DNA of 64,000 nucleotides. Origin: Escherichia phage vB_EcoM_JB75. The DNA is taken from sequence record MH355584.1, one strand, 5' to 3'. Positions 1-51,339 of the stretch are shown here, one piece after another. Every line of letters begins with the position of its first letter. Position 1 is the stretch's first letter. The translations under genes and the position numbers were made by a program. The notes beneath the pieces are model-generated. The model ran no database searches. It saw only the letters and a program-made list of their open reading frames with translations, and was not told the DNA's origin.

Positions 1-117
1 CGTATTATCATAAATGGTAAATATGCTTTAAGAATTATTTGTTATTATTAACTCATACCGCACTGATTAATACCCTCTATCATTAGGGGTTCTTGTTAGA
101 GAGCCTTTGTTAATAAT

Positions 118-190
118 TGGGAATTAGCCAAGTTGGTAAGGCATAGCACTTTGACTGCTAGATGCAAAGGTTCGAGTCCTTTATTCCCAG
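118..190 (+). tRNA. tRNA-Gln (anticodon UUG)
   Basis: Cloverleaf: 7-bp acceptor stem TGGGAAT/ATTCCCA, anticodon loop CUUUGAC, T-loop GGTTCGAGTCC; no encoded CCA. Confidence 0.85.
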
Positions 191-191
191 C

Positions 192-278
192 GCGAGAATG
201 GTCAAATTGGTAAAGGCACAGCACTTAAAATGCTGCGGAATGATTTCCTTGTGGGTTCGAGTCCCACTTCTCGCACCA
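192..278 (+). tRNA. tRNA-Leu (anticodon UAA), long variable arm
   Basis: Acceptor GCGAGAA/TTCTCGC, anticodon stem CAGCA/TGCTG with loop CUUAAAA, encoded CCA. Confidence 0.85.
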
Positions 279-283
279 AATTT

Positions 284-357
<74 letters not shown>

Positions 358-367
358 ATTTAATTTA

Positions 368-441
368 CTCCGTGTAGCTCAGTTTGGTAGAGCGTCTGCT
401 TTGGGAGCAGAATGTCGTAGGTTCAAATCCTGCCACGGAGA
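368..441 (+). tRNA. tRNA-Pro (anticodon UGG)
   Basis: Acceptor CTCCGTG/CACGGAG, anticodon loop UUUGGGA, T-loop GGTTCAAATCC; no encoded CCA. Confidence 0.85.
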
Positions 442-443
442 CT

Positions 444-533
444 GGAGGCGTGGCAGAGTGGTTTAATGCACCGGTCTTGAAAACCGGCAGTCGCTCCGGC
501 GACTCATAGGTTCAAATCCTATCGCCTCCGCCA
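444..533 (+). tRNA. tRNA-Ser (anticodon UGA), long variable arm
   Basis: Acceptor GGAGGCG/CGCCTCC, anticodon stem CCGGT/ACCGG with loop CUUGAAA, encoded CCA. Confidence 0.85.
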
Positions 534-538
534 GTTTT

Positions 539-614
539 GCTGATTTAGCTCAGTAGGTAGAGCACCTCACTTGTAATGAGGACGTCGGCGGTTCGATTCC
601 GTCAATCAGCACCA
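539..614 (+). tRNA. tRNA-Thr (anticodon UGU)
   Basis: Acceptor GCTGATT/AATCAGC, anticodon loop CUUGUAA, T-loop GGTTCGATTCC, encoded CCA. Confidence 0.85.
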
Positions 615-615
615 A

Positions 616-690
616 GGCCCTGTAGCTGGAAGGTTCAAGCAAGCGACTCATAATCGCCAGATGGTGGTTCAATTCCACCCAGGGCCACCA
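616..690 (+). tRNA. tRNA with CAU anticodon (Ile2-type AUA reader by analogy to T4 tRNA-Ile; Met not excluded)
   Basis: Acceptor GGCCCTG/CAGGGCC, anticodon loop CUCAUAA, encoded CCA; identity of CAU tRNAs cannot be decided from sequence alone. Confidence 0.75.
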
Positions 691-703
691 AATTAAGAAT
701 TAA

Positions 704-790
704 GGGGAGTTATCCCGTAGAGGTAGCGGTGTGGACTGTAAATCCATTGTCATTGCGACTCGGGTGGTTCGACTCCATCACTCCCCACCA
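704..790 (+). tRNA. tRNA-Tyr (anticodon GUA), long variable arm
   Basis: Acceptor GGGGAGT/ACTCCCC, anticodon loop CUGUAAA, T-loop GGTTCGACTCC, encoded CCA. Confidence 0.75.
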
Positions 791-794
791 ATTT

Positions 795-869
795 GGATGT
801 GTAGCTCAGTGGTAGAGCAGTTGACTGTTAATCAATTGGTCCATGGTTCGAATCCATGCATGTCCGCCA
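795..869 (+). tRNA. tRNA-Asn (anticodon GUU)
   Basis: Acceptor GGATGTG/CATGTCC (two G-U pairs), D-arm TAGCTCAGTGGTAGAGCA, anticodon loop CUGUUAA, encoded CCA. Confidence 0.75.
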
Positions 870-873
870 AATA

Positions 874-949
874 CGAGGCATAGCTCAGAAGGAAGAGCAA
901 GGACCTTCTAAGTCCTGGGTCGTAGGTTCGATCCCTACTGCCTCGACCA
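874..949 (+). tRNA. tRNA-Arg (anticodon UCU)
   Basis: Acceptor CGAGGCA/TGCCTCG, anticodon stem AGGAC/GTCCT with loop CUUCUAA, encoded CCA. Confidence 0.85.
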
Positions 950-1054
950 GACAAGAAGCCGGGTCGCTACCGGCAAGTCGTCGGACTGATGTTCCCTGTT
1001 TAAGGACTGGTATTAATAAATCTTTATGTTTTGTTAATGTCCCCTTATATCACA

Positions 1055-1216
1055 GCAGAAACGGCGCACCGAATTATCGATTCGAGGAAATATCTTTGCC
1101 GTAAGCCGAGTAGCGTTTTTGACGGAACGTTCGGATATGGTCGAGATATGGCCTTTTAAAAATATTGAGTAGCGTCAACTGCTTAATAACCGGGTTCGAA
1201 TCCCGGCGTTTCGTAC
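1055..1216 (+). ncRNA. Putative small stable RNA with tRNA-like T-arm (compare T4 species 1/2 RNAs downstream of the tRNA cluster)
   Basis: Non-coding stretch after tRNA-Arg with CCGGGTTCGAATCCCGG T-arm-like hairpin at about 1190-1208 and partially paired ends; boundaries approximate. Confidence 0.25.
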
Positions 1217-1262
1217 AAACACTTGCCTTAGCAGGTGGAACCCCGACAAGGTTGCCGCAAGG

Positions 1263-1296
1263 CTTAGCCCCGACCGAAAGGTTGGGGCTTTTTAGT
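1263..1296 (+). repeat. 34-bp direct repeat copy 1 (contains terminator hairpin)
   Basis: CTTAGCCCCGACCGAAAGGTTGGGGCTTTTTAGT, identical to 1818-1851. Confidence 0.9.
1266..1295 (+). terminator. Rho-independent terminator
   Basis: GC-rich stem AGCCCCGACC / GGTTGGGGCT, GAAA loop, T-run. Confidence 0.7.
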
Positions 1297-1303
1297 ATAA
1301 ATA
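1296..1303 (+). promoter_or_regulatory. T4-type late promoter TATAAATA
   Basis: Exact TATAAATA 37 nt upstream of the Ip-type gene start (1340). Confidence 0.5.
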
Positions 1304-1339
1304 AGTATATTAAAACCCCGAATTAAAACAGGAAATAAG

Positions 1340-1813
1340 ATGAAATCATATGCTCAATTTTTAAATGAAGCGGTGTTAAATGAAGCATCTAGCACCGAAA
1401 TTCAAGCTGTCGCAAAAGCAGCCATTGCAGCGGGTAAATATTCCTATAAAGATGCTTCTGACGAATCACGATTCCAATTTGCTCGCGACATGAAAGCAGA
1501 AGGATTTACGGGAAATGCAGTTAGTATGGCCTGGAAAAGTCTAGTTGCTACTGGCGCTGCTTTTGCAAAGGCTTCGGGTAAACCTGCTCCTAAAGCAGAT
1601 CCTAAAGCGGCACAAGAAAAAAATATCGTTAAAGGAATTATCGCTAAATATGAAGCTATCCTTAAAGAGCTTTTAGTAATCAAAACCGAAGGCCAAAAGT
1701 TAGCCCGTGCTTATAGTTTCAAAGATAATCCACATGTTCACTCTCTTGAGTATGTTGAAGACATCCAAAAAATTATTAAAGACCGCATTTGGTCTGCTAA
1801 ACAAATCAAATGA
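1340..1813 (+). CDS. Internal protein (Ip-type), N-terminal capsid-targeting sequence
   Basis: 157 aa; N-terminus MKSYAQFLNEA resembles the T4 IPI/II/III targeting sequence MKTYQEFIAE cut by the prohead protease; RBS AGGAAA. Confidence 0.7.
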   Translation: MKSYAQFLNEAVLNEASSTEIQAVAKAAIAAGKYSYKDASDESRFQFARDMKAEGFTGNAVSMAWKSLVATGAAFAKASGKPAPKADPKAAQEKNIVKGIIAKYEAILKELLVIKTEGQKLARAYSFKDNPHVHSLEYVEDIQKIIKDRIWSAKQIK

Positions 1814-1817
1814 CATT

Positions 1818-1851
1818 CTTAGCCCCGACCGAAAGGTTGGGGCTTTTTAGT
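1818..1851 (+). repeat. 34-bp direct repeat copy 2 (contains terminator hairpin)
   Basis: Perfect copy of 1263-1296. Confidence 0.9.
1821..1850 (+). terminator. Rho-independent terminator
   Basis: Same hairpin plus T-run as at 1266-1295. Confidence 0.7.
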
Positions 1852-1938
1852 TTGAATCACATAGAGAATGCTGCTACGGATAGTAACAAAGTAATAAATA
1901 ATTAATAACCAACCGATAAATTATTTCAAGGATTTTAA

Positions 1939-2502
1939 ATGAAAACCTATGCCGAATTTTTAACCGAAGCAGCAAAATTACCATCTGAAGCAGATCTTAC
2001 TAAAGTATTCTTCCAATTGGACCCAAAAGACCGCGGCGATTTTCTTAAGTGGAAAGCTAAAGCTATTGAAATGTACAACATCGATAATAGTTCTTTTACA
2101 ATGAGTCAAGAAAATAAATTCAATAAAGCATTTTTCAAAATTTCTAAGAAATTGGCATCTGGCGCTCAGGTTCCTAAATCTGTGTTAGCTACTCCTGAAC
2201 GCGCACCTGTTAAAATTTCTAAGAATATGTTCGACACTAAAAAATACGTTAATGCTTTGAATAAAGCTCTTGATGCATTGGATGATGCAAAGAAGGCAGC
2301 CCGCGATCTTCAAGACGTGTACACCGATTTTGACCGCAAAACTAAAGGTTCTATTTCAAATAGCGAACGCAATAGTGTAAGTGTTTATTCTGATAGCCTT
2401 GATGTTCTTGGCGATGCGTATACTGAAATTAAAAATCGTATTAACACTGCATCTAAGCTAAAAGCTGCTGCAGAAGCTATAATAACTAAACTAGGTAAAT
2501 AA
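1939..2502 (+). CDS. Internal protein (Ip-type), N-terminal capsid-targeting sequence
   Basis: 187 aa; N-terminus MKTYAEFLTEAA; lysine-rich. Confidence 0.7.
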   Translation: MKTYAEFLTEAAKLPSEADLTKVFFQLDPKDRGDFLKWKAKAIEMYNIDNSSFTMSQENKFNKAFFKISKKLASGAQVPKSVLATPERAPVKISKNMFDTKKYVNALNKALDALDDAKKAARDLQDVYTDFDRKTKGSISNSERNSVSVYSDSLDVLGDAYTEIKNRINTASKLKAAAEAIITKLGK

Positions 2503-2510
2503 TTTTAAAT

Positions 2511-2535
2511 CCCTATCTAAATGATAGGGCTTTTT
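2511..2535 (+). terminator. Rho-independent terminator
   Basis: Stem CCCTATC / GATAGGG followed by T-run. Confidence 0.6.
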
Positions 2536-2627
2536 GGTATCTAGGCCTTTCTGGACCTCTCTAGGCATCATTTAGTTTATACCCTTTATAATATATTATC
2601 CTATCCTTTAATTGCCCATCCCTGCCC

Positions 2628-2734
2628 TAGAATTCCCTAAAAATTTTTTCACAAAACTGTTTACATCTCTGTTCTTCCATGGTACTATACAACTATCAAC
2701 TACTGATACAGAAAACAACTTGGAGAATGAAATG
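2628..2734 (+). repeat. Promoter/5'UTR cassette copy A (near-identical to 45532-45631)
   Basis: About 100 nt shared, including early promoter, leader and RBS GGAGAATGAAATG. Confidence 0.85.
2659..2688 (+). promoter_or_regulatory. T4-type early promoter (sigma70-like)
   Basis: -35 GTTTAC, 18-bp spacer, -10 TACTAT, upstream A/T tract. Confidence 0.7.
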
Positions 2735-2995
2735 GATAATTACGGCGAACTGTTCAACTTCTTTATGAAATGCGTTTCAGAAGATTTCGGTCGTACAGTG
2801 AATGATATTAAAGTTATCGGTCCTGAACATCCGATGTTTGAAACTTACGCAGTAATGGGTAATGAAGACGGTCAGTGGTATACTGTAAAGGTTGTGATTA
2901 ACATGTTCACTGCTGAAAGTTATGTTAAACTGTCTTCTAAAGTTTACCATGATAACGACGAAATCGCTGAAGAATATTTCAATAATATGAAATAA
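2732..2995 (+). CDS. Hypothetical protein (87 aa)
   Basis: ORF-track frame 2612..2995 trimmed to the ATG after RBS GGAGA; the upstream part of the track ORF is the promoter. Confidence 0.55.
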   Translation: MDNYGELFNFFMKCVSEDFGRTVNDIKVIGPEHPMFETYAVMGNEDGQWYTVKVVINMFTAESYVKLSSKVYHDNDEIAEEYFNNMK

Positions 2996-3051
2996 GTTTA
3001 CATAGGTTCATGATTGAGATATTATGAGCCTATACAAATGAGGAAAACATT

Positions 3052-3387
3052 ATGAAACGTAACTTTAGTAAAGCTTTTTGTAATAGAAATAATTATCCTG
3101 AAGAGCTTTTTGAATCTAAGGACTTTAAAGAGTTTAACGAACGTTCTCAAAACATGCCTGTACAATGGGTGTTAGATTATGCCAAACGTATCTTTGAAGG
3201 CGTGCGGGATATTTGTCCTGATGATGAAGCTCCTTATTTTAAAAAGGCTTGGGAACTCGCCAACCAAGCATATATCAATGCTTTAGAATCTTCTAAAGGT
3301 ACTGACGATGATTTTATTTTATTGGCTATCAATGATGCCGTTATCGAGGCCATTGACGTCTTTATCGATGAGCTAGACGAAGAATAA
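3052..3387 (+). CDS. Hypothetical acidic protein (111 aa)
   Basis: ORF with RBS GAGGAAA; acidic C-terminus. Confidence 0.55.
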   Translation: MKRNFSKAFCNRNNYPEELFESKDFKEFNERSQNMPVQWVLDYAKRIFEGVRDICPDDEAPYFKKAWELANQAYINALESSKGTDDDFILLAINDAVIEAIDVFIDELDEE

Positions 3388-3443
3388 GTTTACAATCTAT
3401 TAAAACGTGATATTATCTAATTATACCAACCTAAGGAAATACT

Positions 3444-5882: not shown

Positions 5883-6851
<969 letters not shown>

Positions 6852-13741: not shown

Positions 13742-13765
13742 AGTCTCCTTCGGGAGACTTTTTTC
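13742..13765 (+). terminator. Rho-independent terminator (UUCG tetraloop)
   Basis: AGTCTCC-TTCG-GGAGACT plus T6. Confidence 0.7.
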
Positions 13766-13774
13766 ATTTTGCCG

Positions 13775-13804
13775 GTTTACTTTCCGTTTGAGCTGTGGTA
13801 CTAT
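13775..13804 (+). promoter_or_regulatory. T4-type early promoter
   Basis: -35 GTTTAC, 18-bp spacer, -10 TACTAT. Confidence 0.7.
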
Positions 13805-13832
13805 ACAACTATCGGATAAAGAGGAGAACATC

Positions 13833-14021
13833 ATGAAAATTGAAGCACTTAATCAAGAAGGAAATATCTACGTCATCATTAATGGTGATTTTTTCGTCGA
13901 CATGGATGAAGTTACTAGTGAAGAACTTGTAGAACTTCTTAAGAAACGTTATGATATGTGTGATGAAGCTGCAACTCATATGGCGTGTGCAATATTCTCT
14001 CTTTCATATGTGGTGGAATAA
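13833..14021 (+). CDS. Hypothetical acidic protein (62 aa)
   Basis: ATG after RBS AGAGGAG. Confidence 0.5.
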
Positions 14022-14586: not shown

Positions 14587-14616
14587 GTTTACAAGTTGGC
14601 AAGGTTATGGTATAGT
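14587..14616 (+). promoter_or_regulatory. T4-type early promoter
   Basis: -35 GTTTAC, 18-bp spacer, -10 TATAGT; imperfect inverted repeat flanks the -10. Confidence 0.65.
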
Positions 14617-14751
14617 AATCTTGTCAACTGCCAAGGAGAAGAGAATGAAAATTTTGTTTGTTGTGTATGTGATGATTCAATATAATTACCCAATGTTTAC
14701 TTATAATCTAGTGAACAACATTATTGATATTATTCAAAGGAGTATGTAATT

Positions 14752-17313: not shown

Positions 17314-17337
17314 GGGAGCCTTCGGGCTCCCTTTTTT
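17314..17337 (+). terminator. Rho-independent terminator (UUCG tetraloop)
   Basis: GGGAGCC-TTCG-GGCTCCC plus T6. Confidence 0.75.
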
Positions 17338-17361
17338 ATTTAAAAATTTTTTCACAAAATT

Positions 17362-17391
17362 GTTTACAAGCATAAAGCTTTATGGTACTAT
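17362..17391 (+). promoter_or_regulatory. T4-type early promoter
   Basis: -35 GTTTAC, 18-bp spacer, -10 TACTAT; diverged copy of the cassette at 2628. Confidence 0.7.
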
Positions 17392-17428
17392 ACAACTATC
17401 AAAACAAACACTTAAACGGAAAAACAAA

Positions 17429-17578
17429 ATGAAAATTACACCAATTGAAGTAAAAAAGTTGATTGACACAGAAGAAATTTCAGAGTGTTTTGAAAGTTTC
17501 TTAGAAGATGCAACTGAAGATAATGCAGTTTATCTCGCTCAGAAAATTATCGAAACTTATTTGGAGAAGAATCAATGA
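17429..17578 (+). CDS. Hypothetical small protein (49 aa)
   Basis: ATG downstream of promoter; the track ORF 17360 start lies inside the promoter. Confidence 0.4.
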   Translation: MKITPIEVKKLIDTEEISECFESFLEDATEDNAVYLAQKIIETYLEKNQ

Positions 17579-17838
17579 CAGTTTACGTAGATGTTTTAAT
17601 GAATCATGGATGGAAACTTCGCGGTCATCCAACTAAAAATTGTCATATGTTCACTGATGGAGATATTGAAGAGCTTCATGAAATGGCAGAAGCAATAGGA
17701 ATGAAACGTTTTTGGTTTCAAGATAAACGCATTAAACATTATGACTTACACGCTCGCCGACGCCAAAAAGCTGTAGAACTTGGAGCTGTAGAAGTATCTC
17801 GCCGTGAAGCGGTAAAAATTTGGCGAACGTTAAAATAA
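17575..17838 (+). CDS. Hypothetical protein (87 aa)
   Basis: ATG overlaps upstream stop. Confidence 0.5.
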   Translation: MTVYVDVLMNHGWKLRGHPTKNCHMFTDGDIEELHEMAEAIGMKRFWFQDKRIKHYDLHARRRQKAVELGAVEVSRREAVKIWRTLK

Positions 17839-17841
17839 ATT

Positions 17842-17871
17842 GTTTACAGAAGGGTAGTAGTGTGATACTAT
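17842..17871 (+). promoter_or_regulatory. T4-type early promoter
   Basis: -35 GTTTAC, 18-bp spacer, -10 TACTAT; inverted repeat AGGGTAGTAGT/ACTATTACCCT spans the -10. Confidence 0.65.
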
Positions 17872-17907
17872 TACCCTATCAAAACAAATGTGAGATTGGA
17901 GAATAAA

Positions 17908-18876
17908 ATGAAAACTGTAACTATCAATAAGGGTATCTACTTCGGTAAAGAAATCTCTGGAACTTTTGAGCTCTTAGGTGAATGGTTCCCAGATAATGCT
18001 CCGGTAGATGCACAAGGAGATGGTAAAGTTTTTGTTGAAATTGACGGTAAGCGTCGCGGTGTTTGGGTTTACAAATCAGACATTTCATATGATGGTGTAA
18101 AAGTTGAAGAAGTTAAAGAATCATATGAAGATATGAAAACCCGCATTAATAAAAGATTTAATGTTATGGGAATGATGACGAATGGTATTATTAACGGAAA
18201 CATTCGTTCATTAATTATCTCGGGAGCAGCAGGTATTGGTAAAACGTATTCTTTAGATAAAGCTTTAAATAAAGCAAATGATATTGGATACATTGAATAT
18301 AAAAGCATTAACGGTAAAATCTCTGGTATCGGTCTTTATGAACAGCTCTGGAATAATCGTGAAGAGAATTCTGTCCTTTTGATTGATGATGTGGATGTTT
18401 TCTCTGATATGGACATTCTTAATCTTCTGAAAGCTGCTCTGGACACTGGAGAGACCCGTAAAGTCTGCTGGAGCACTGCATCTTCTTACTTAGAAGAAAA
18501 AGGCATTGAGCGTGAGTTTGAATTTAAAGGAACGATTGTTTTTATCACAAACGTTGATATTGACCGCGAATTAGACCGTGGTACTAAACTTGCTCCACAT
18601 TTACAAGCATTAGTGTCCCGCTCAGTTTATTTAGATTTGGGTGTTCACACTAATGAAGAAATTATGGTCAGGGTTGAAGATGTTATTCTTTCAACCGACA
18701 TGATGCAAAAGCGCGGTCTTTCTGATGAAGAAACTTATAAAGCATTATCATGGATGAAAGTTAATGTTAATCGTTTACGCAATGTTTCACTGCGTACTGC
18801 TCTTTATCTTGCTGACTTTATTATGACCGACAAAAACGGTTGGGAAGAAATCGCTGAGGTTACTCTTCTGAAATAA
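17908..18876 (+). CDS. AAA+ family ATPase
   Basis: Walker A GAAGIGKT, Walker B LLIDDVD; 322 aa. Confidence 0.7.
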   Translation: MKTVTINKGIYFGKEISGTFELLGEWFPDNAPVDAQGDGKVFVEIDGKRRGVWVYKSDISYDGVKVEEVKESYEDMKTRINKRFNVMGMMTNGIINGNIRSLIISGAAGIGKTYSLDKALNKANDIGYIEYKSINGKISGIGLYEQLWNNREENSVLLIDDVDVFSDMDILNLLKAALDTGETRKVCWSTASSYLEEKGIEREFEFKGTIVFITNVDIDRELDRGTKLAPHLQALVSRSVYLDLGVHTNEEIMVRVEDVILSTDMMQKRGLSDEETYKALSWMKVNVNRLRNVSLRTALYLADFIMTDKNGWEEIAEVTLLK

Positions 18877-19283: not shown

Positions 19284-19313
19284 GTTTACAAGACTGTTCC
19301 TCTGTGGTACTAT
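19284..19313 (+). promoter_or_regulatory. T4-type early promoter
   Basis: -35 GTTTAC, 18-bp spacer, -10 TACTAT. Confidence 0.7.
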
Positions 19314-19340
19314 ACAACTATCAACTACGGAGGAACAAAA

Positions 19341-19868
19341 ATGAATGCTAAAGATATTTTCAACTTGGTAAACTACAATGATGGTAAATTTAAATCTGAA
19401 GCTCAAAGCAAGTTCTTTAATGATGTCTCAATCGGTGGTGAAATCACGGTTGATGGAGGACAAATTTACAAATCCCGTTGGAATTGGATCGTTATTATTG
19501 ATGAGATTGGTATTGTAGAAATTTACAAGAATACGAATAAAAATCGTACATTACACTGGTCTCGTGATACTAACGAACAGTACAAAAAGGATAAAGCATC
19601 TAAATTATCTCGTGTAACTCAAGAAGATATTGAGTTCATCAAGAAAGATATTTTGATGTATGATAACTTAATTGCTGAAGAGCAAGCTGTTATTGATAAA
19701 TTTGATGAGATTAAAGCTTCTCGTGAAATTCCTGATTTTATGAAAGAATCAGTAAATGAACGATACACTCTCATTTCAGAGCGTATTGAAACTTACAAAA
19801 AGCAAAGAGCTGAACGCCAGAATACTCTTCGGAAGTTTGAAGAACGGTTAAAGACGGTACTCGCATAA
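19341..19868 (+). CDS. Hypothetical protein (175 aa)
   Basis: ATG after RBS GGAGGAA; helical C-terminus. Confidence 0.55.
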   Translation: MNAKDIFNLVNYNDGKFKSEAQSKFFNDVSIGGEITVDGGQIYKSRWNWIVIIDEIGIVEIYKNTNKNRTLHWSRDTNEQYKKDKASKLSRVTQEDIEFIKKDILMYDNLIAEEQAVIDKFDEIKASREIPDFMKESVNERYTLISERIETYKKQRAERQNTLRKFEERLKTVLA

Positions 19869-31215: not shown

Positions 31216-31287
31216 CACATTCTGTATATTACCATTCTAAGCTATCGTTCCTTTCTTATCATTCCCTAAAATAATTTTCACAAAGTT

Positions 31288-31317
31288 GTTTACAAGAAGT
31301 TCAAACTGTGGTATTAT
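31288..31317 (+). promoter_or_regulatory. T4-type early promoter
   Basis: -35 GTTTAC, 18-bp spacer, -10 TATTAT. Confidence 0.65.
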
Positions 31318-42748: not shown

Positions 42749-45445
42749 ATGAAAGAATTTTATATCTCTATCGAAACAGTCGGAAATAACATTGTTGAAC
42801 GTTATATTGATGAAAATGGAAAGGAACGTACTCGCGAAGTAGAATATCTTCCAACTATGTTTAGACATTGTAAGGAAGAGTCAAAGTACAAAGACATCTA
42901 TGGTAAAAATTGCGCTCCTCAAAAATTTCCATCAATGAAAGATGCTCGAGATTGGATGAAGCGAATGGAAGACATCGGTCTCGAAGCTCTTGGTATGAAC
43001 GATTTTAAACTCGCTTATATCAGTGATACGTATGGTTCAGAAATTGTTTATGACCGAAAATTTGTTCGTGTAGCTAACTGTGACATTGAGGTTACTGGTG
43101 ATAAATTTCCTGATCCAATGAAAGCTGAATATGAAATTGATGCTATCACTCATTATGATTCAATTGATGATCGTTTTTATGTTTTCGACCTTTTGAATTC
43201 AATGTACGGTTCAGTATCAAAATGGGATGCAAAGTTAGCTGCTAAGCTTGACTGTGAAGGTGGTGATGAAGTTCCTCAAGAAATTCTTGACCGAGTAATT
43301 TATATGCCATTCGATAATGAGCGTGATATGCTCATGGAATATATCAATCTCTGGGAACAGAAACGACCTGCTATTTTTACTGGTTGGAATATTGAGGGAT
43401 TTGACGTTCCGTATATCATGAATCGTGTTAAAATGGTTCTCGGTGAACGTAGTATGAAACGCTTCTCTCCAATCGGTCGAGTAAAATCTAAACTAATTCA
43501 AAATATGTACGGTAGCAAAGAAATTTATTCTATTGATGGCGTATCTATTCTTGATTATTTAGATTTGTACAAGAAATTCGCTTTTACTAATTTGCCGTCA
43601 TTCTCTTTGGAATCAGTTGCTCAACATGAAACCAAAAAAGGTAAATTACCGTATGATGGTCCTATTAATAAACTTCGTGAGACTAATCATCAACGATACA
43701 TTAGTTATAACATCATTGACGTAGAATCAGTTCAAGCAATTGATAAAATTCGCGGGTTTATCGATCTAGTTTTAAGTATGTCTTATTATGCTAAAATGCC
43801 TTTTTCTGGTGTAATGAGTCCTATTAAAACTTGGGATGCTATTATTTTTAACTCATTGAAAGGTGAACATAAGGTTATTCCTCAACAGGGTTCGCACGTT
43901 AAACAGAGTTTTCCGGGTGCATTCGTATTTGAACCTAAACCAATTGCTCGTCGATATATTATGAGTTTTGACTTGACGTCTCTGTATCCGAGCATTATTC
44001 GTCAGGTTAACATTAGTCCTGAGACTATTCGTGGTCAGTTTAAAGTTCATCCAATTCATGAATATATTGCAGGAACAGCTCCTAAACCGAGTGATGAATA
44101 TTCTTGTTCTCCGAATGGATGGATGTATGATAAGCATCAAGAAGGTATCATTCCAAAGGAAATCGCTAAAGTATTTTTCCAGCGTAAAGACTGGAAAAAG
44201 AAAATGTTCGCTGAAGAAATGAATGCCGAAGCTATTAAAAAGATTATTATGAAAGGCGCAGGGTCTTGTTCAACTAAACCAGAAGTTGAACGATATGTTA
44301 AGTTCAGTGATGATTTCTTAAATGAACTGTCGAATTATACTGAATCTGTTCTCAATAGTCTGATTGAGGAATGTGAAAAAGCTGCTACACTTGCTAATAC
44401 AAATCAGCTGAACCGTAAAATTCTTATTAACAGTCTTTATGGTGCTCTTGGTAATATTCATTTCCGTTACTATGATTTGCGAAATGCTACTGCTATCACA
44501 ATTTTCGGCCAAGTTGGTATTCAGTGGATTGCTCGTAAAATTAATGAGTATCTGAATAAAGTATGTGGAACTAATGGCGAAGATTTCATCGCAGCAGGTG
44601 ATACTGATTCGGTATATGTTTGTGTAGATAAAGTTATTGAAAAAGTTGGTCTTGACCGATTCAAAGAGCAGAACGATTTGGTTGAATTTATGAATCAGTT
44701 CGGTAAGAAAAAGATGGAACCTATGATTGATGTTGCATATCGTGAGTTATGTGATTATATGAATAACCGCGAGCATCTGATGCATATGGACCGTGAAGCT
44801 ATTTCTTGCCCTCCACTTGGTTCAAAGGGTATTGGTGGATTTTGGAAAGCGAAAAAGCGTTATGCTCTGAACGTTTATGATATGGAAGATAAACGATTTG
44901 CTGAACCGCATCTAAAAATCATGGGTATGGAAACTCAGCAGAGTTCAACGCCTAAAGCGGTCCAAGAAGCTCTCGAAGAAAGTATTCGTCGTATTCTTCA
45001 AGAAGGTGAAGAGTCTGTCCAAGAATACTACAAGAACTTCGAGAAAGAATATCGTCAACTTGACTATAAAGTTATTGCTGAAGTAAAAACTGCGAACGAT
45101 ATAGCGAAATATGATGATAAAGGTTGGCCAGGATTTAAATGCCCGTTCCATATTCGCGGTGTGCTAACTTATCGTCGAGCTGTTAGCGGTTTAGGTGTAG
45201 CTCCAATTTTGGATGGAAATAAAGTAATGGTTCTTCCATTGCGTGAAGGAAATCCATTTGGTGACAAATGCATTGCTTGGCCGTCGGGTACAGAACTTCC
45301 AAAAGAAATTCGTTCTGACGTACTGTCTTGGATTGACTACTCAACTTTGTTCCAAAAATCGTTTGTTAAACCGCTTGCGGGCATGTGTGAATCGGCTGGT
45401 ATGGACTATGAAGAAAAAGCTTCGTTAGACTTCCTGTTTGGCTGA
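42749..45445 (+). CDS. 43: DNA polymerase gp43 (family B)
   Basis: 898 aa; exonuclease and polymerase motifs (YGDTDS); matches T4 gp43 length. Confidence 0.98.
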   Translation: MKEFYISIETVGNNIVERYIDENGKERTREVEYLPTMFRHCKEESKYKDIYGKNCAPQKFPSMKDARDWMKRMEDIGLEALGMNDFKLAYISDTYGSEIVYDRKFVRVANCDIEVTGDKFPDPMKAEYEIDAITHYDSIDDRFYVFDLLNSMYGSVSKWDAKLAAKLDCEGGDEVPQEILDRVIYMPFDNERDMLMEYINLWEQKRPAIFTGWNIEGFDVPYIMNRVKMVLGERSMKRFSPIGRVKSKLIQNMYGSKEIYSIDGVSILDYLDLYKKFAFTNLPSFSLESVAQHETKKGKLPYDGPINKLRETNHQRYISYNIIDVESVQAIDKIRGFIDLVLSMSYYAKMPFSGVMSPIKTWDAIIFNSLKGEHKVIPQQGSHVKQSFPGAFVFEPKPIARRYIMSFDLTSLYPSIIRQVNISPETIRGQFKVHPIHEYIAGTAPKPSDEYSCSPNGWMYDKHQEGIIPKEIAKVFFQRKDWKKKMFAEEMNAEAIKKIIMKGAGSCSTKPEVERYVKFSDDFLNELSNYTESVLNSLIEECEKAATLANTNQLNRKILINSLYGALGNIHFRYYDLRNATAITIFGQVGIQWIARKINEYLNKVCGTNGEDFIAAGDTDSVYVCVDKVIEKVGLDRFKEQNDLVEFMNQFGKKKMEPMIDVAYRELCDYMNNREHLMHMDREAISCPPLGSKGIGGFWKAKKRYALNVYDMEDKRFAEPHLKIMGMETQQSSTPKAVQEALEESIRRILQEGEESVQEYYKNFEKEYRQLDYKVIAEVKTANDIAKYDDKGWPGFKCPFHIRGVLTYRRAVSGLGVAPILDGNKVMVLPLREGNPFGDKCIAWPSGTELPKEIRSDVLSWIDYSTLFQKSFVKPLAGMCESAGMDYEEKASLDFLFG

Positions 45446-45458
45446 TAGAATAAATCTA

Positions 45459-45479
45459 GGGACCTCCGGGTCCCTTTTT
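45459..45479 (+). terminator. Rho-independent terminator
   Basis: GGGACC-TCCG-GGTCCC plus T5. Confidence 0.75.
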
Positions 45480-45531
45480 CATACAAGTAATATAAATCTA
45501 TACTTATGAAAAACAGATGATTCTGGACATT

Positions 45532-45631
45532 TAGAATTCCCTAAAAAATTTTCACAAAACTGTTTACATCTCTGTTCTTCCATGGTACTATACAACTATC
45601 AACTACTGATACGGATTTGGAGAATGAAATG
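45532..45631 (+). repeat. Promoter/5'UTR cassette copy B (near-identical to 2628-2734)
   Basis: First ~80 nt differ from copy A by about 2 changes; shared RBS/ATG context. Confidence 0.85.
45562..45591 (+). promoter_or_regulatory. T4-type early promoter
   Basis: -35 GTTTAC, 18-bp spacer, -10 TACTAT. Confidence 0.7.
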
Positions 45632-45865
45632 AAAATTGTTATGGGATGCTTAGCAGTTTGTTTAGTTGCATTAGCAGCAGTTCCATTTGTTAGTGTTGAA
45701 AATGATACTCAACCTGTGATTGAATCTAGCACCGTTATTCACACTAATGGTAAAATATCAGTTAAAATTGATGATAATCTTCATGTGAATACAAATGGAT
45801 CTTTAGGTGTGCAAATGGGTAATACCTGCATAAGCACTACTGGAGTAATTACTACTTGCATTTGA
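45629..45865 (+). CDS. Small secreted/membrane protein (78 aa)
   Basis: N-terminal hydrophobic signal-like segment; start at ATG after cassette RBS. Confidence 0.5.
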   Translation: MKIVMGCLAVCLVALAAVPFVSVENDTQPVIESSTVIHTNGKISVKIDDNLHVNTNGSLGVQMGNTCISTTGVITTCI

Positions 45866-45875
45866 GGAAATTATT

Positions 45876-46256
45876 ATGAAAATCGCTATTTTGGTTATTG
45901 CATTAGGTCTTACTGGTTGTGTAGCTCAAGGACCGGTAGTAAATCAGTCTGATGTAGGAAAAATTGTAAACTGTTCAAGCAAATTTTATAATCCTAATGT
46001 CAAGTGTTATAAAGAAGCTCCAAAGCAAACAGTCGAACAAATGCAGGCGAATTTTGACGAAGCTATTCGTCCAGATGAATCTGCTCAAGCATATCGTAAT
46101 TCTGATGTAATTACACACGAAGAAAAAATTGAAAACTACTGCGCCGAAATTTGGGCTAATTGGGCTAATAATTACCAATGGCGTACTGGTAAAAATGCTC
46201 CGATGGAGTATGTAGTGAATTCTTATAATTCATGTGTAAAAAATTTGACTAAGTGA
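45876..46256 (+). CDS. Putative lipoprotein (126 aa)
   Basis: Signal peptide with lipobox LTGC; RBS GAGGAAA. Confidence 0.6.
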   Translation: MKIAILVIALGLTGCVAQGPVVNQSDVGKIVNCSSKFYNPNVKCYKEAPKQTVEQMQANFDEAIRPDESAQAYRNSDVITHEEKIENYCAEIWANWANNYQWRTGKNAPMEYVVNSYNSCVKNLTK

Positions 46257-51281: not shown

Positions 51282-51311
51282 TTTACAAGCTGACAAGACT
51301 ATGGTATAGTA
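51282..51311 (+). promoter_or_regulatory. T4-type early promoter
   Basis: -35 GTTTAC, 18-bp spacer, -10 TATAGT; perfect 8-bp inverted repeat ACAAGACT/AGTCTTGT flanks it. Confidence 0.65.
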
Positions 51312-51339
51312 GTCTTGTTGGTTAAATGAGGAGATTGTT

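Follow-up and report, generated by a model that had tools for sequence, protein, structure and literature searches.

Introduction

Early transcription in phage T4 starts from promoters with an UP/-35/TGn/-10 architecture, which out-compete the promoters of the host (Hinton 2010, PMC2988021). The common consensus of these promoters reaches well past the -35 and -10 elements, and the phage proteins Alt and ModA act on them via the interaction between alpha-CTD and the UP element (PMC2988021). Two aspects of this phase, the abrupt shut-off of early promoters and the promoter-specific stimulation by Alt, involve mechanisms that reviews call not understood (PMC2988021, PMC3014915). At the level of the transcript, strong cleavage sites of RegB/S1 follow the consensus GG*AGRAYARAA (Uzan and Miller 2010, PMC3014915).

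Early promoters have also been linked to genome rearrangement. Promoter-early stem-loops (PeSLs) were defined in RB49/phi1 (Arbiol et al. 2010, PMC2839356) and then for T4/PST (Comeau, Arbiol and Krisch 2014, PMC4122927), and a role of this type had been foreshadowed for internal-protein loci. In RB49/phi1, inverse PCR demonstrated mini-circles between neighbouring PeSLs, and the T-even elements were described by the authors as analogues built on T4 early promoters, not as homologues (PMC2839356). A T4/PST PeSL consists of a stem-loop, an AT-rich tract, the motif TTTACW-N17-TAYWAT, a Shine-Dalgarno (SD) sequence and a start codon, and such elements lie near indels between close relatives (PMC4122927).

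Here, we analyse two similar cassettes in a 64-kb stretch (64,000 nt) of Escherichia phage vB_EcoM_JB75 (MH355584.1), hereafter the window, which belongs to a Tequatrovirus (T4-like phage) and whose + strand is the strand of T4 early transcription. An original prediction had read them as mobile PeSL-type cassettes that shuffle recently acquired, niche-specific genes. We conclude, with a probability of roughly 0.8, that the two are paralogues from a dispersed family of early-promoter cassettes of the T4 type, and that members of this family serve as homology patches for swaps of small genes.

Results

Two near-identical early promoters 43 kb apart

The two segments that the original prediction had called near-identical were found at exactly the coordinates it gave. 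Copy A (107 nt) and copy B (100 nt) match in 97 of 107 alignment columns, the remainder being 3 mismatches and 7 gap columns from one 1-nt and one 6-nt indel (Table 1). They are direct repeats ~43 kb (42.9 kb) apart and have in common an uninterrupted run of 64 nt (2646-2709 and 45549-45612). This run is the longest exact direct repeat of the window; the runner-up, a pair of terminators, reaches 34 nt. The ORFs behind the copies are indeed unrelated, as had been claimed, the 87-aa ORF being T4 e.8 (phrog_2678) and the 78-aa ORF a member of phrog_4189.

Compared with hundreds of T4-like genomes, the A region of the window is 92-98.5% identical and the B region up to 99.7%. T4 itself has the orthologous pair, one copy upstream of e.8 and one upstream of imm.1; the duplication is therefore ancestral to Tequatrovirus and no peculiarity of this phage, which speaks against the proposal that the pair marks recent acquisitions through shuffled cassettes. 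The UP region of copy A is polymorphic, with a 10-11 nt indel among A loci: T4, KRT47, RB6, HY01, T2 and wV7 have the CCCTAAAACTTTTTAAAAATTTTTTCAC form, and the window, G29, ECP2301 and SH7 have the CCCTAAAAATTTTTTCAC form. Because its UP region is of the short form, copy A aligns with B up to TAGAATTCCC in this phage.

Table 1. Coordinates of the cassette copies, their parts and adjoining features in the window.
Feature	Position	Strand	Remarks
Hairpin resembling an intrinsic terminator, closing the upstream 187-aa ORF	2511-2535	+	dG -10.5, z -2.0; 125 nt upstream of the -35 of A, outside the repeat
Copy A: early promoter, leader and SD of e.8	2628-2734	+	orthologous T4 sequence upstream of e.8
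Copy A, UP-like tract	2639-2659	+	
Copy A, -35 TTTACA	2660-2665	+	
Copy A, TGG and -10 TACTAT	2680-2688	+	
Copy A, predicted transcription start	near 2695	+	
Copy A, GGAGAATGAAATG	2722-2734	+	
e.8 (87 aa, phrog_2678)	2732-2995	+	conserved gene, no accessory gene
mobD.5-type family member	13743-13835	+	hairpin 13743-13758; -35 at 13776; TGGTACTATACAACTATC 13796-13813; SD and ATG 13821-13835
Family member with adjoining hairpin	17314-17431	+	hairpin 17314-17331; -35 at 17363; core 17383-17400; ATG 17429; classic PeSL layout
Polymorphic insert of two small ORFs (49 aa; 87 aa with DUF4031)	17429-17838	+	
Second tandem early promoter (TGATACTATTACCCTATC), partial family relative	17843-17910	+	GGAGAATAAAATG 17898-17910; drives nrdC.10; 3' boundary of the insert
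Family member upstream of nrdC.8	19285-19343	+	leader AACTACGGAGGAACAAAAATG
Partial relative	31261-31317	+	only the far-upstream ATTCCCTAAAA..TTTTCACAAAGTTGTTTACAAG part in common
Terminator hairpin after gene 43	45458-45481	+	dG -13.9, z -4.2; 88 nt upstream of the -35 of B, outside the repeat
Copy B: early promoter, leader and SD between gene 43 and the 78-aa ORF	45532-45631	+	T4 orthologue upstream of imm.1
Copy B, UP-like tract	45543-45562	+	
Copy B, -35	45563-45568	+	
Spacer patch TCT (AGA in the closest relatives)	45569-45571	+	makes the B spacer identical to the window's own A; candidate conversion tract
Copy B, TGG and -10	45583-45591	+	
Copy B, GGAGAATGAAATG	45619-45631	+	
78-aa ORF (phrog_4189)	45629-45865	+	polymorphic slot occupant between promoter B and imm.1
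imm.1 (126 aa, DUF5481, lipoprotein-like start) with its own RBS	45864-46256	+	RBS GAGGAAATTATTATG 45864-45878, 3' boundary of the slot

Each copy carries every recognition element of a T4 early promoter (PMC2988021). TTTACA, a 17-nt spacer and TG plus TACTAT are present at 2660-2688 in A and at 45563-45591 in B. Upstream lies an A/T tract resembling an UP element. A motif search with the UP-element consensus, AAAWWTWTTTTNNNAAA followed by NNNN and TTTAC, gave 0 mismatches in A and 2 in B; consensus plus TTTAC was matched 4 times in the window, against 0.56 expected. What sets A and B apart from the general T4 early consensus is their non-consensus -10, TACTAT, together with the invariant start region ACAACTATC, neither of which that consensus requires (PMC2988021). 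A promoter is annotated at a paralogous copy in T4 (GenBank X75802), and a predicted one in fPS-65. A literature search for papers naming e.8 or imm.1 promoters returned none.

As the T4 early consensus extends beyond the -35 and -10 (PMC2988021), A and B might be no more than very good matches to it that became alike by convergence, with neither descent nor exchange behind them. We therefore catalogued the convincing early-type promoters on the + strand of the window, 18 in number, and compared them ungapped, anchored on the -10. All 18 have GTTTAC and TGnTAnnAT in common, a likeness that convergence on a consensus would account for. From -35 to -10, however, A and B are identical at 29 of 29 positions (median identity over the 153 promoter pairs, 0.59), and they also agree at all 14 non-consensus spacer positions, where the median is 0.29; the likeness then continues through the leader, within the 64-nt exact run and past it. 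A spacer identity so far above that of other promoter pairs, together with the identity in the leader, argues for common descent or conversion and against convergence on the consensus, and so does a relic of coding sequence, the first 12 nt of imm.1, at the T4 ndd locus (see below). We regard convergence as effectively refuted.

Other promoters of the window also have close paralogues. The early promoters at 14588-14624 and 51282-51318 are 87% identical over 38 nt, with a spacer and start region that form an inverted CAAG..CTTG, and further early promoters at 6840, 53927, 58359 and 63560 likewise belong to the close paralogous pairs or families. The pattern is thus a general one, of which A and B are the most extreme instance.

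The leaders of both copies are predicted to be unstructured, folding no better than shuffled sequences (z of +1.2 for A and -0.07 for B), and an Rfam scan of positions 1-3200, which include copy A, returned no family match; we accordingly rejected a structured RNA element in the leader. The ribosome-binding site (RBS) common to A and B, GGAGAATGAAA, agrees with the strong RegB site at 10 of 11 positions, and its variant GGAGAATAAAA, present at 17898 of the window and in T4, G29 and others, at all 11. As in described RegB/S1 targets, the early transcript has its GGAG in a translation initiation region that is rich in A and unstructured (PMC3014915). Different from those targets, the sites of A and B are recognized by motif match, and over the whole window the motif shows no enrichment (15 matches versus 11.2 expected), so that RegB targeting is something we infer. 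Taken with the analogy to the T4 literature, these features suggest that A and B function as early promoters whose transcripts are RegB substrates.

A dispersed family with an invariant core

The 17-mer GGTACTATACAACTATC, which covers the -10 of both copies, occurs five times exactly in the window (2681, 13797, 17384, 19306 and 45584), always on the + strand, where 0.02 copies are expected. Four of these sites had been listed correctly before; the one at 13797 had been overlooked. The sequence TGGTACTATACAACTATC is common to all five copies, and there are more in the ndd region of T4. The positions of the five members are conserved across the window, T4, G29, ECP2301 and KRT47, but in spacer and leader they are mosaics of one another. 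The promoter and leader of the nrdC.8 type, for instance, are also found at locus B in T2 and ECP2301.

The conservation of this module could have a different cause, namely purifying selection on a cis-regulatory element spanning -10, +1 and leader, as in a co-regulated subclass of promoters, with any role in recombination incidental. TGGTACTATACAACTATC is exact at five loci despite diverged spacers and upstream sequences, it is nearly invariant across the genomes examined although its -10 departs from the consensus, and e.8 of a more distant genus has a related start region, ..TACTATAGACCTATCAA, in front of it. Selection of this kind leaves unexplained the mosaic spacers and leaders, the clustered multi-nucleotide patches and the indel junctions inside the cassettes, and RB27 tolerates four changes within the 17-mer core (GGTACTATATCAATATC) plus one in the leader. 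As the main cause of the identity we consider such selection possible, if somewhat doubtful; it is compatible with a family of homology patches, and neither excludes the other. A bolder reading, that TGGTACTATACAACTATC, comprising the non-consensus -10, the discriminator and the first transcribed bases, might mark out a subclass of T4 early promoters with a function of its own, is a speculative suggestion to which we give little weight.

Outside the window, the ndd region of T4 (GenBank X75802, 660-790 and 962-1030) contains another cassette copy, nearly complete and with a promoter annotated on it. This copy has a leader of the B type (imm.1 type), followed by the first 12 coding nucleotides of imm.1 (ATGAAAATCGCT, MKIA) and a stop after 8 codons. 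Hence, the cassette and the start of its gene have been copied ectopically at least once. A second promoter nearby carries the spacer that T4 has at its locus B.

Copy A drives a conserved gene

The ORF behind copy A had been proposed to be a recent, niche-specific acquisition. In all 15 Tequatrovirus genomes in which the A locus was read (14 with paired loci, plus RB27), e.8 lies directly 3' of copy A, and tblastn hits to it come from 596 records, RB69 (93% amino acid identity) and Enterobacter phages (39%) among them. In a more distant group, an early-type promoter of different sequence still precedes the gene. Such wide conservation rules out a recent acquisition and argues against an annotation of e.8 as one. 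The gene has also been given another name, the e.8 CDS in T4 GenBank record L13089 (L13089.1) being called 'msp1'.

While the gene driven by A is invariant, the slots next to it vary: the e.7 slot downstream, and the site upstream where phrog_2280 ORFs alternate with rnaC/rnaD. The first of these (2997-3387 in the window) contains e.7 (111 aa) in the window, T4 and RB27 (110 aa in RB27), a 58-aa ORF in RB6 and T2, and an ORF of ~172 aa in wV7 and HY01; in SH7, a 54-aa ORF stands between e.8 and e.7. Both e.7 and e.6 have early promoters of their own, at 2997-3025 and 3389-3416.

Upstream, between the tRNA cluster and copy A (1263-2545), lie two tandem paralogous ORFs of phrog_2280, at 1340-1813 (157 aa) and 1939-2502 (187 aa). 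Each ends in a terminator (1821-1844 and 2511-2535), and a further terminator is located at 1266-1289; those at 1266-1289 and 1821-1844 have a 34-nt exact repeat in common. In T4 and RB6 the site is occupied by rnaC/rnaD, in further genomes by one ORF or by other ORFs, and the junction of this variation appears to be the terminator tail CTTTTTGGTATCTA. The ORF starts at 1338, 1937, 6938 and 52504 have a 33-nt segment in common (ATGAAAACATAT..GAATTT.., encoding MK(T/S)Y.EF), which suggests a dispersed family of small genes, each member behind an early promoter.

A slot with three alleles behind copy B

Locus B presents another picture. The order in the window is gene 43 (DNA polymerase, ..SLDFLFG*, ending at 45445), copy B, the 78-aa ORF, imm.1, imm, a 49-aa ORF and gene 42. 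The position of the 78-aa ORF is a slot with three alleles. The first is the 78-aa ORF itself, found in 321 records by DNA and 325 by protein. In the second, an unrelated 83-aa ORF (MKNIQTNF..) takes its place, in 31 records that include T2, RB27, RB51, RB68 and ECP2301. In the third, seen in T4, RB6, SH7 and others, no ORF intervenes and the leader is fused straight to imm.1. Locus B was present in ~540 records, RefSeq/GenBank duplicates included, from which the fused allele comes to roughly 190 by subtraction, not by direct count.

The 5' junction of the slot lies inside the cassette. All arrangements have ..TACAACTATCAACTA in common, past which ECP2301 and T2 change to GGAGGAACACAAAATG, a leader of the nrdC.8 type. 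The B copy of T2 is of the nrdC.8 type from spacer to leader, and that of ECP2301 combines an A-like spacer with an nrdC.8-type leader. The 3' junction is the RBS of imm.1. At this locus T4 lacks exactly the stretch between two ATGAAAAT octamers; its empty slot may result from a deletion between the octamers or may be the ancestral state.

Neither the occupants of this slot nor e.8 could be tied to a function: Pfam returned nothing for e.8, the 78-aa ORF or the 83-aa ORF, and PHROGs gave only families of unknown function. The 78-aa ORF has a hydrophobic N terminus (MKIVMGCLAVCLVALAAVPF), on the strength of which its product is a putative secreted protein. At its start (45632-45643, AUGAAAAUUGUUAUGGGA), 12 nt agree exactly with the RegA SELEX consensus aaAAUUGUUAUGUAA and overlap a second in-frame AUG, which suggests translational repression by RegA; at up to 1 mismatch the window has 5 matches where 2.3 are expected, so this one may be due to chance.

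Tandem promoters bound a two-ORF indel upstream of nrdC.10

A second variable site is bounded by early promoters on both sides. The two-ORF insert upstream of nrdC.10, with the tandem promoters at 17363 and 17843 as its borders, is present in G29 and in 154 records and missing from T4, ECP2301 and KRT47, where a single promoter leads straight into nrdC.10. The nrdC.10 promoter of T4 is no simple recombinant of the two tandem promoters of the window, since its leader is B-like. The larger ORF of the insert (17575-17838, 87 aa) matches DUF4031 (Pfam E = 3e-21), and the insert also occurs in Enterobacter phage genomes of ~172 kb.

Replacement at fixed slots

How far do these cassettes resemble PeSLs? 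The original prediction had matched them to this class and suggested a test of whether the downstream ORFs are present or absent in close relatives. By this test, the match holds in part. The composite layout of T4/PST elements is there, with AT-rich tract, TTTACW-N17-TAYWAT, SD and start codon, and a replacement or indel adjoins the cassette at B (three alleles) and at 17363/17843 (the two-ORF indel), with junctions at the cassettes themselves; e.8, behind copy A, does not vary. Nor do the terminator-like stem-loops near A and B (2511-2529 and 45458-45475) belong to the repeat, outside of which they lie 125 and 88 nt upstream of the respective -35. At the copies with their -35 at 13776 and 17363, which show the classic PeSL layout, the hairpins end 17-31 nt upstream, the one at 13776 being a terminator hairpin at 17 nt.

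The same comparison can be made with each published system. With T4/PST PeSLs (PMC4122927), the cassettes have in common the phage group, the composite layout and the link to small ORFs that are inserted, deleted or replaced between close relatives; the ndd.4/.5 example of that paper comes from the T4 region that holds another close cassette copy. They differ in that the stem-loop of A and B, 88-125 nt upstream, is no part of the repeated unit, and in that A drives a conserved gene. With RB49/phi1 PeSLs (PMC2839356), they share the principle that repeated early promoter/terminator cassettes provide homology for modular shuffling, and the crossovers mapped there between -10 and ATG resemble the junctions at B and nrdC.10. 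Unlike our cassettes, the RB49/phi1 elements have a near-perfect TTGACA/TATAAT and a GGGG..CCCC stem, and their mini-circles were shown by experiment, whereas the cassettes of the window are known from sequence.

The mini-circles found in RB49/phi1 by inverse PCR (PMC2839356) raise the question of whether units of PeSL plus ORF, possibly with a dedicated recombinase, are truly mobile and carry ORFs between loci and genomes. The start of imm.1 in the ndd copy of T4 would fit, as a cassette with some adjoining coding sequence has evidently been copied ectopically at least once. To see whether any ORF recurs at a second locus, DNA and protein searches were run with the 78-aa ORF, the 83-aa ORF and the two-ORF insert. 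They placed each one at essentially a single site per record, which was the same locus in every case where the orientation could be checked, so mobility of these ORFs between loci was rejected. No recombinase is associated with them, and general recombination of the T4 type needs only short homology. Truly mobile units are thus an unlikely explanation. The variable ORFs being confined to one locus each, the evidence is for allelic replacement at fixed slots, with the cassette as homology, in place of the shuffling of mobile cassettes that had been proposed.

A candidate conversion patch in the spacer of copy B

If family members serve as homology patches, exchange between distant copies might be visible in individual genomes. 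At locus A, the spacer starts with ATC[CT][CT][TC] in every genome. At locus B, it starts with AAGA[CA]T in 8 of 14 genomes, including T4, and is A-like in the other 6. The nearest relatives of the window at B are CHD2BS1 and Shinka. CHD2BS1 differs at 6 of 2001 positions, three of them adjacent (45569-45571, AGA to TCT) and all three changed to the bases of copy A, which gives the B spacer of the window the ATCTCT of its A. We found no database record identical to the window across B. Outside the window, ATCTCT at B is found in HP3 alone, whose own A also has ATCTCT; G29 and one other genome have ATCTCT at A and lack it at B, and in wV7 the two loci have a rare variant in common. As an aside, the taxonomy line of the HP3 RefSeq record (NC_041919.1) reads 'Rosemountvirus' although it is a 168-kb T4-like genome.

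Since short repeats are prone to mis-polishing, and the window departs from its nearest relatives exactly inside the repeat, one might suspect that assembly or polishing homogenised the two copies into their perfect 64-nt identity. This is exceedingly improbable: the repeat spans only ~100 nt between unique flanks, copy B has kept its own indel (45547) and the G in GATACGG (45613), and the independently sequenced HP3 has the same B allele. The spacer patch is most parsimoniously read as the trace of an ectopic conversion that now and then copies short tracts from A to B; the tract here would measure between 3 and 64 nt. Alternatively, there may have been just one older conversion, with the window acquiring its B allele from an HP3-like phage through ordinary allelic recombination.

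Such conversion does not amount to general concerted evolution of A and B, a scenario we rejected after a pairing-permutation test. Within-genome covariation of the two loci over -35..+22 in 14 genomes was 2.93 observed versus 3.02 permuted (P = 0.28), so conversion is sporadic and not pervasive. The paired A/B loci were drawn from GenBank records in place of IMG/VR, which contains only ~10 T4-like contigs.

Discussion

Together, these observations are consistent with the following course of events. With a near-consensus UP element, the -35 TTTACA, a 17-nt spacer, an extended -10 (TGG TACTAT) and the start region ACAACTATC, each copy would be fired by the sigma-70 RNA polymerase of the host immediately after infection. 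The ~35-nt unstructured leader, ending in a GGAG Shine-Dalgarno sequence close to the RegB/S1 consensus, would let the mRNA be translated efficiently and then be inactivated by a RegB cut within the GGAG. In a highly recombinogenic genome, 60-100 nt of near-identity in addition turns the copies into homology patches, as the comparison of genomes shows. Closely spaced copies bound insertions and deletions of small ORFs, and at a fixed slot one promoter is found in front of different ORFs. Between copies 43 kb apart, the exchange is limited to short conversion patches, because a crossover between them would delete essential replication genes, leaving conversion products as the ones presumably recoverable. 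The patch at 45569-45571 would then be the reason for the perfect 64-nt identity of A and B in this phage.

The role of the cassettes at junctions is already known in kind. It corresponds to the published PeSL-type mechanism (PMC2839356, PMC4122927) and introduces no new kind of element. Accordingly, the main use of the analysis is calibration: what stood out as a 100-bp repeat preceding unrelated genes proves orthologous to a pair of T4 early promoters. For annotation, the sites are best labelled early promoters with RegB-type Shine-Dalgarno sequences.

Beyond that, the two cassettes illustrate how genes of T4-like phages are shuffled as modules by the published PeSL-type route, and they add several incremental points. 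One is a countable three-allele slot for accessory genes beside the superinfection-immunity genes, with junctions inside a promoter cassette. Another is sequence evidence of short conversion patches exchanged by copies 43 kb apart, and a third is an SD sequence that follows the RegB consensus. The last is the invariant -10/start module TGGTACTATACAACTATC. Should it mark a promoter subclass after all, it might be, for example, the cis-target of early-promoter shut-off or of promoter-specific stimulation by Alt, and the module could serve to probe the unexplained shut-off of early promoters in T4-like phages.
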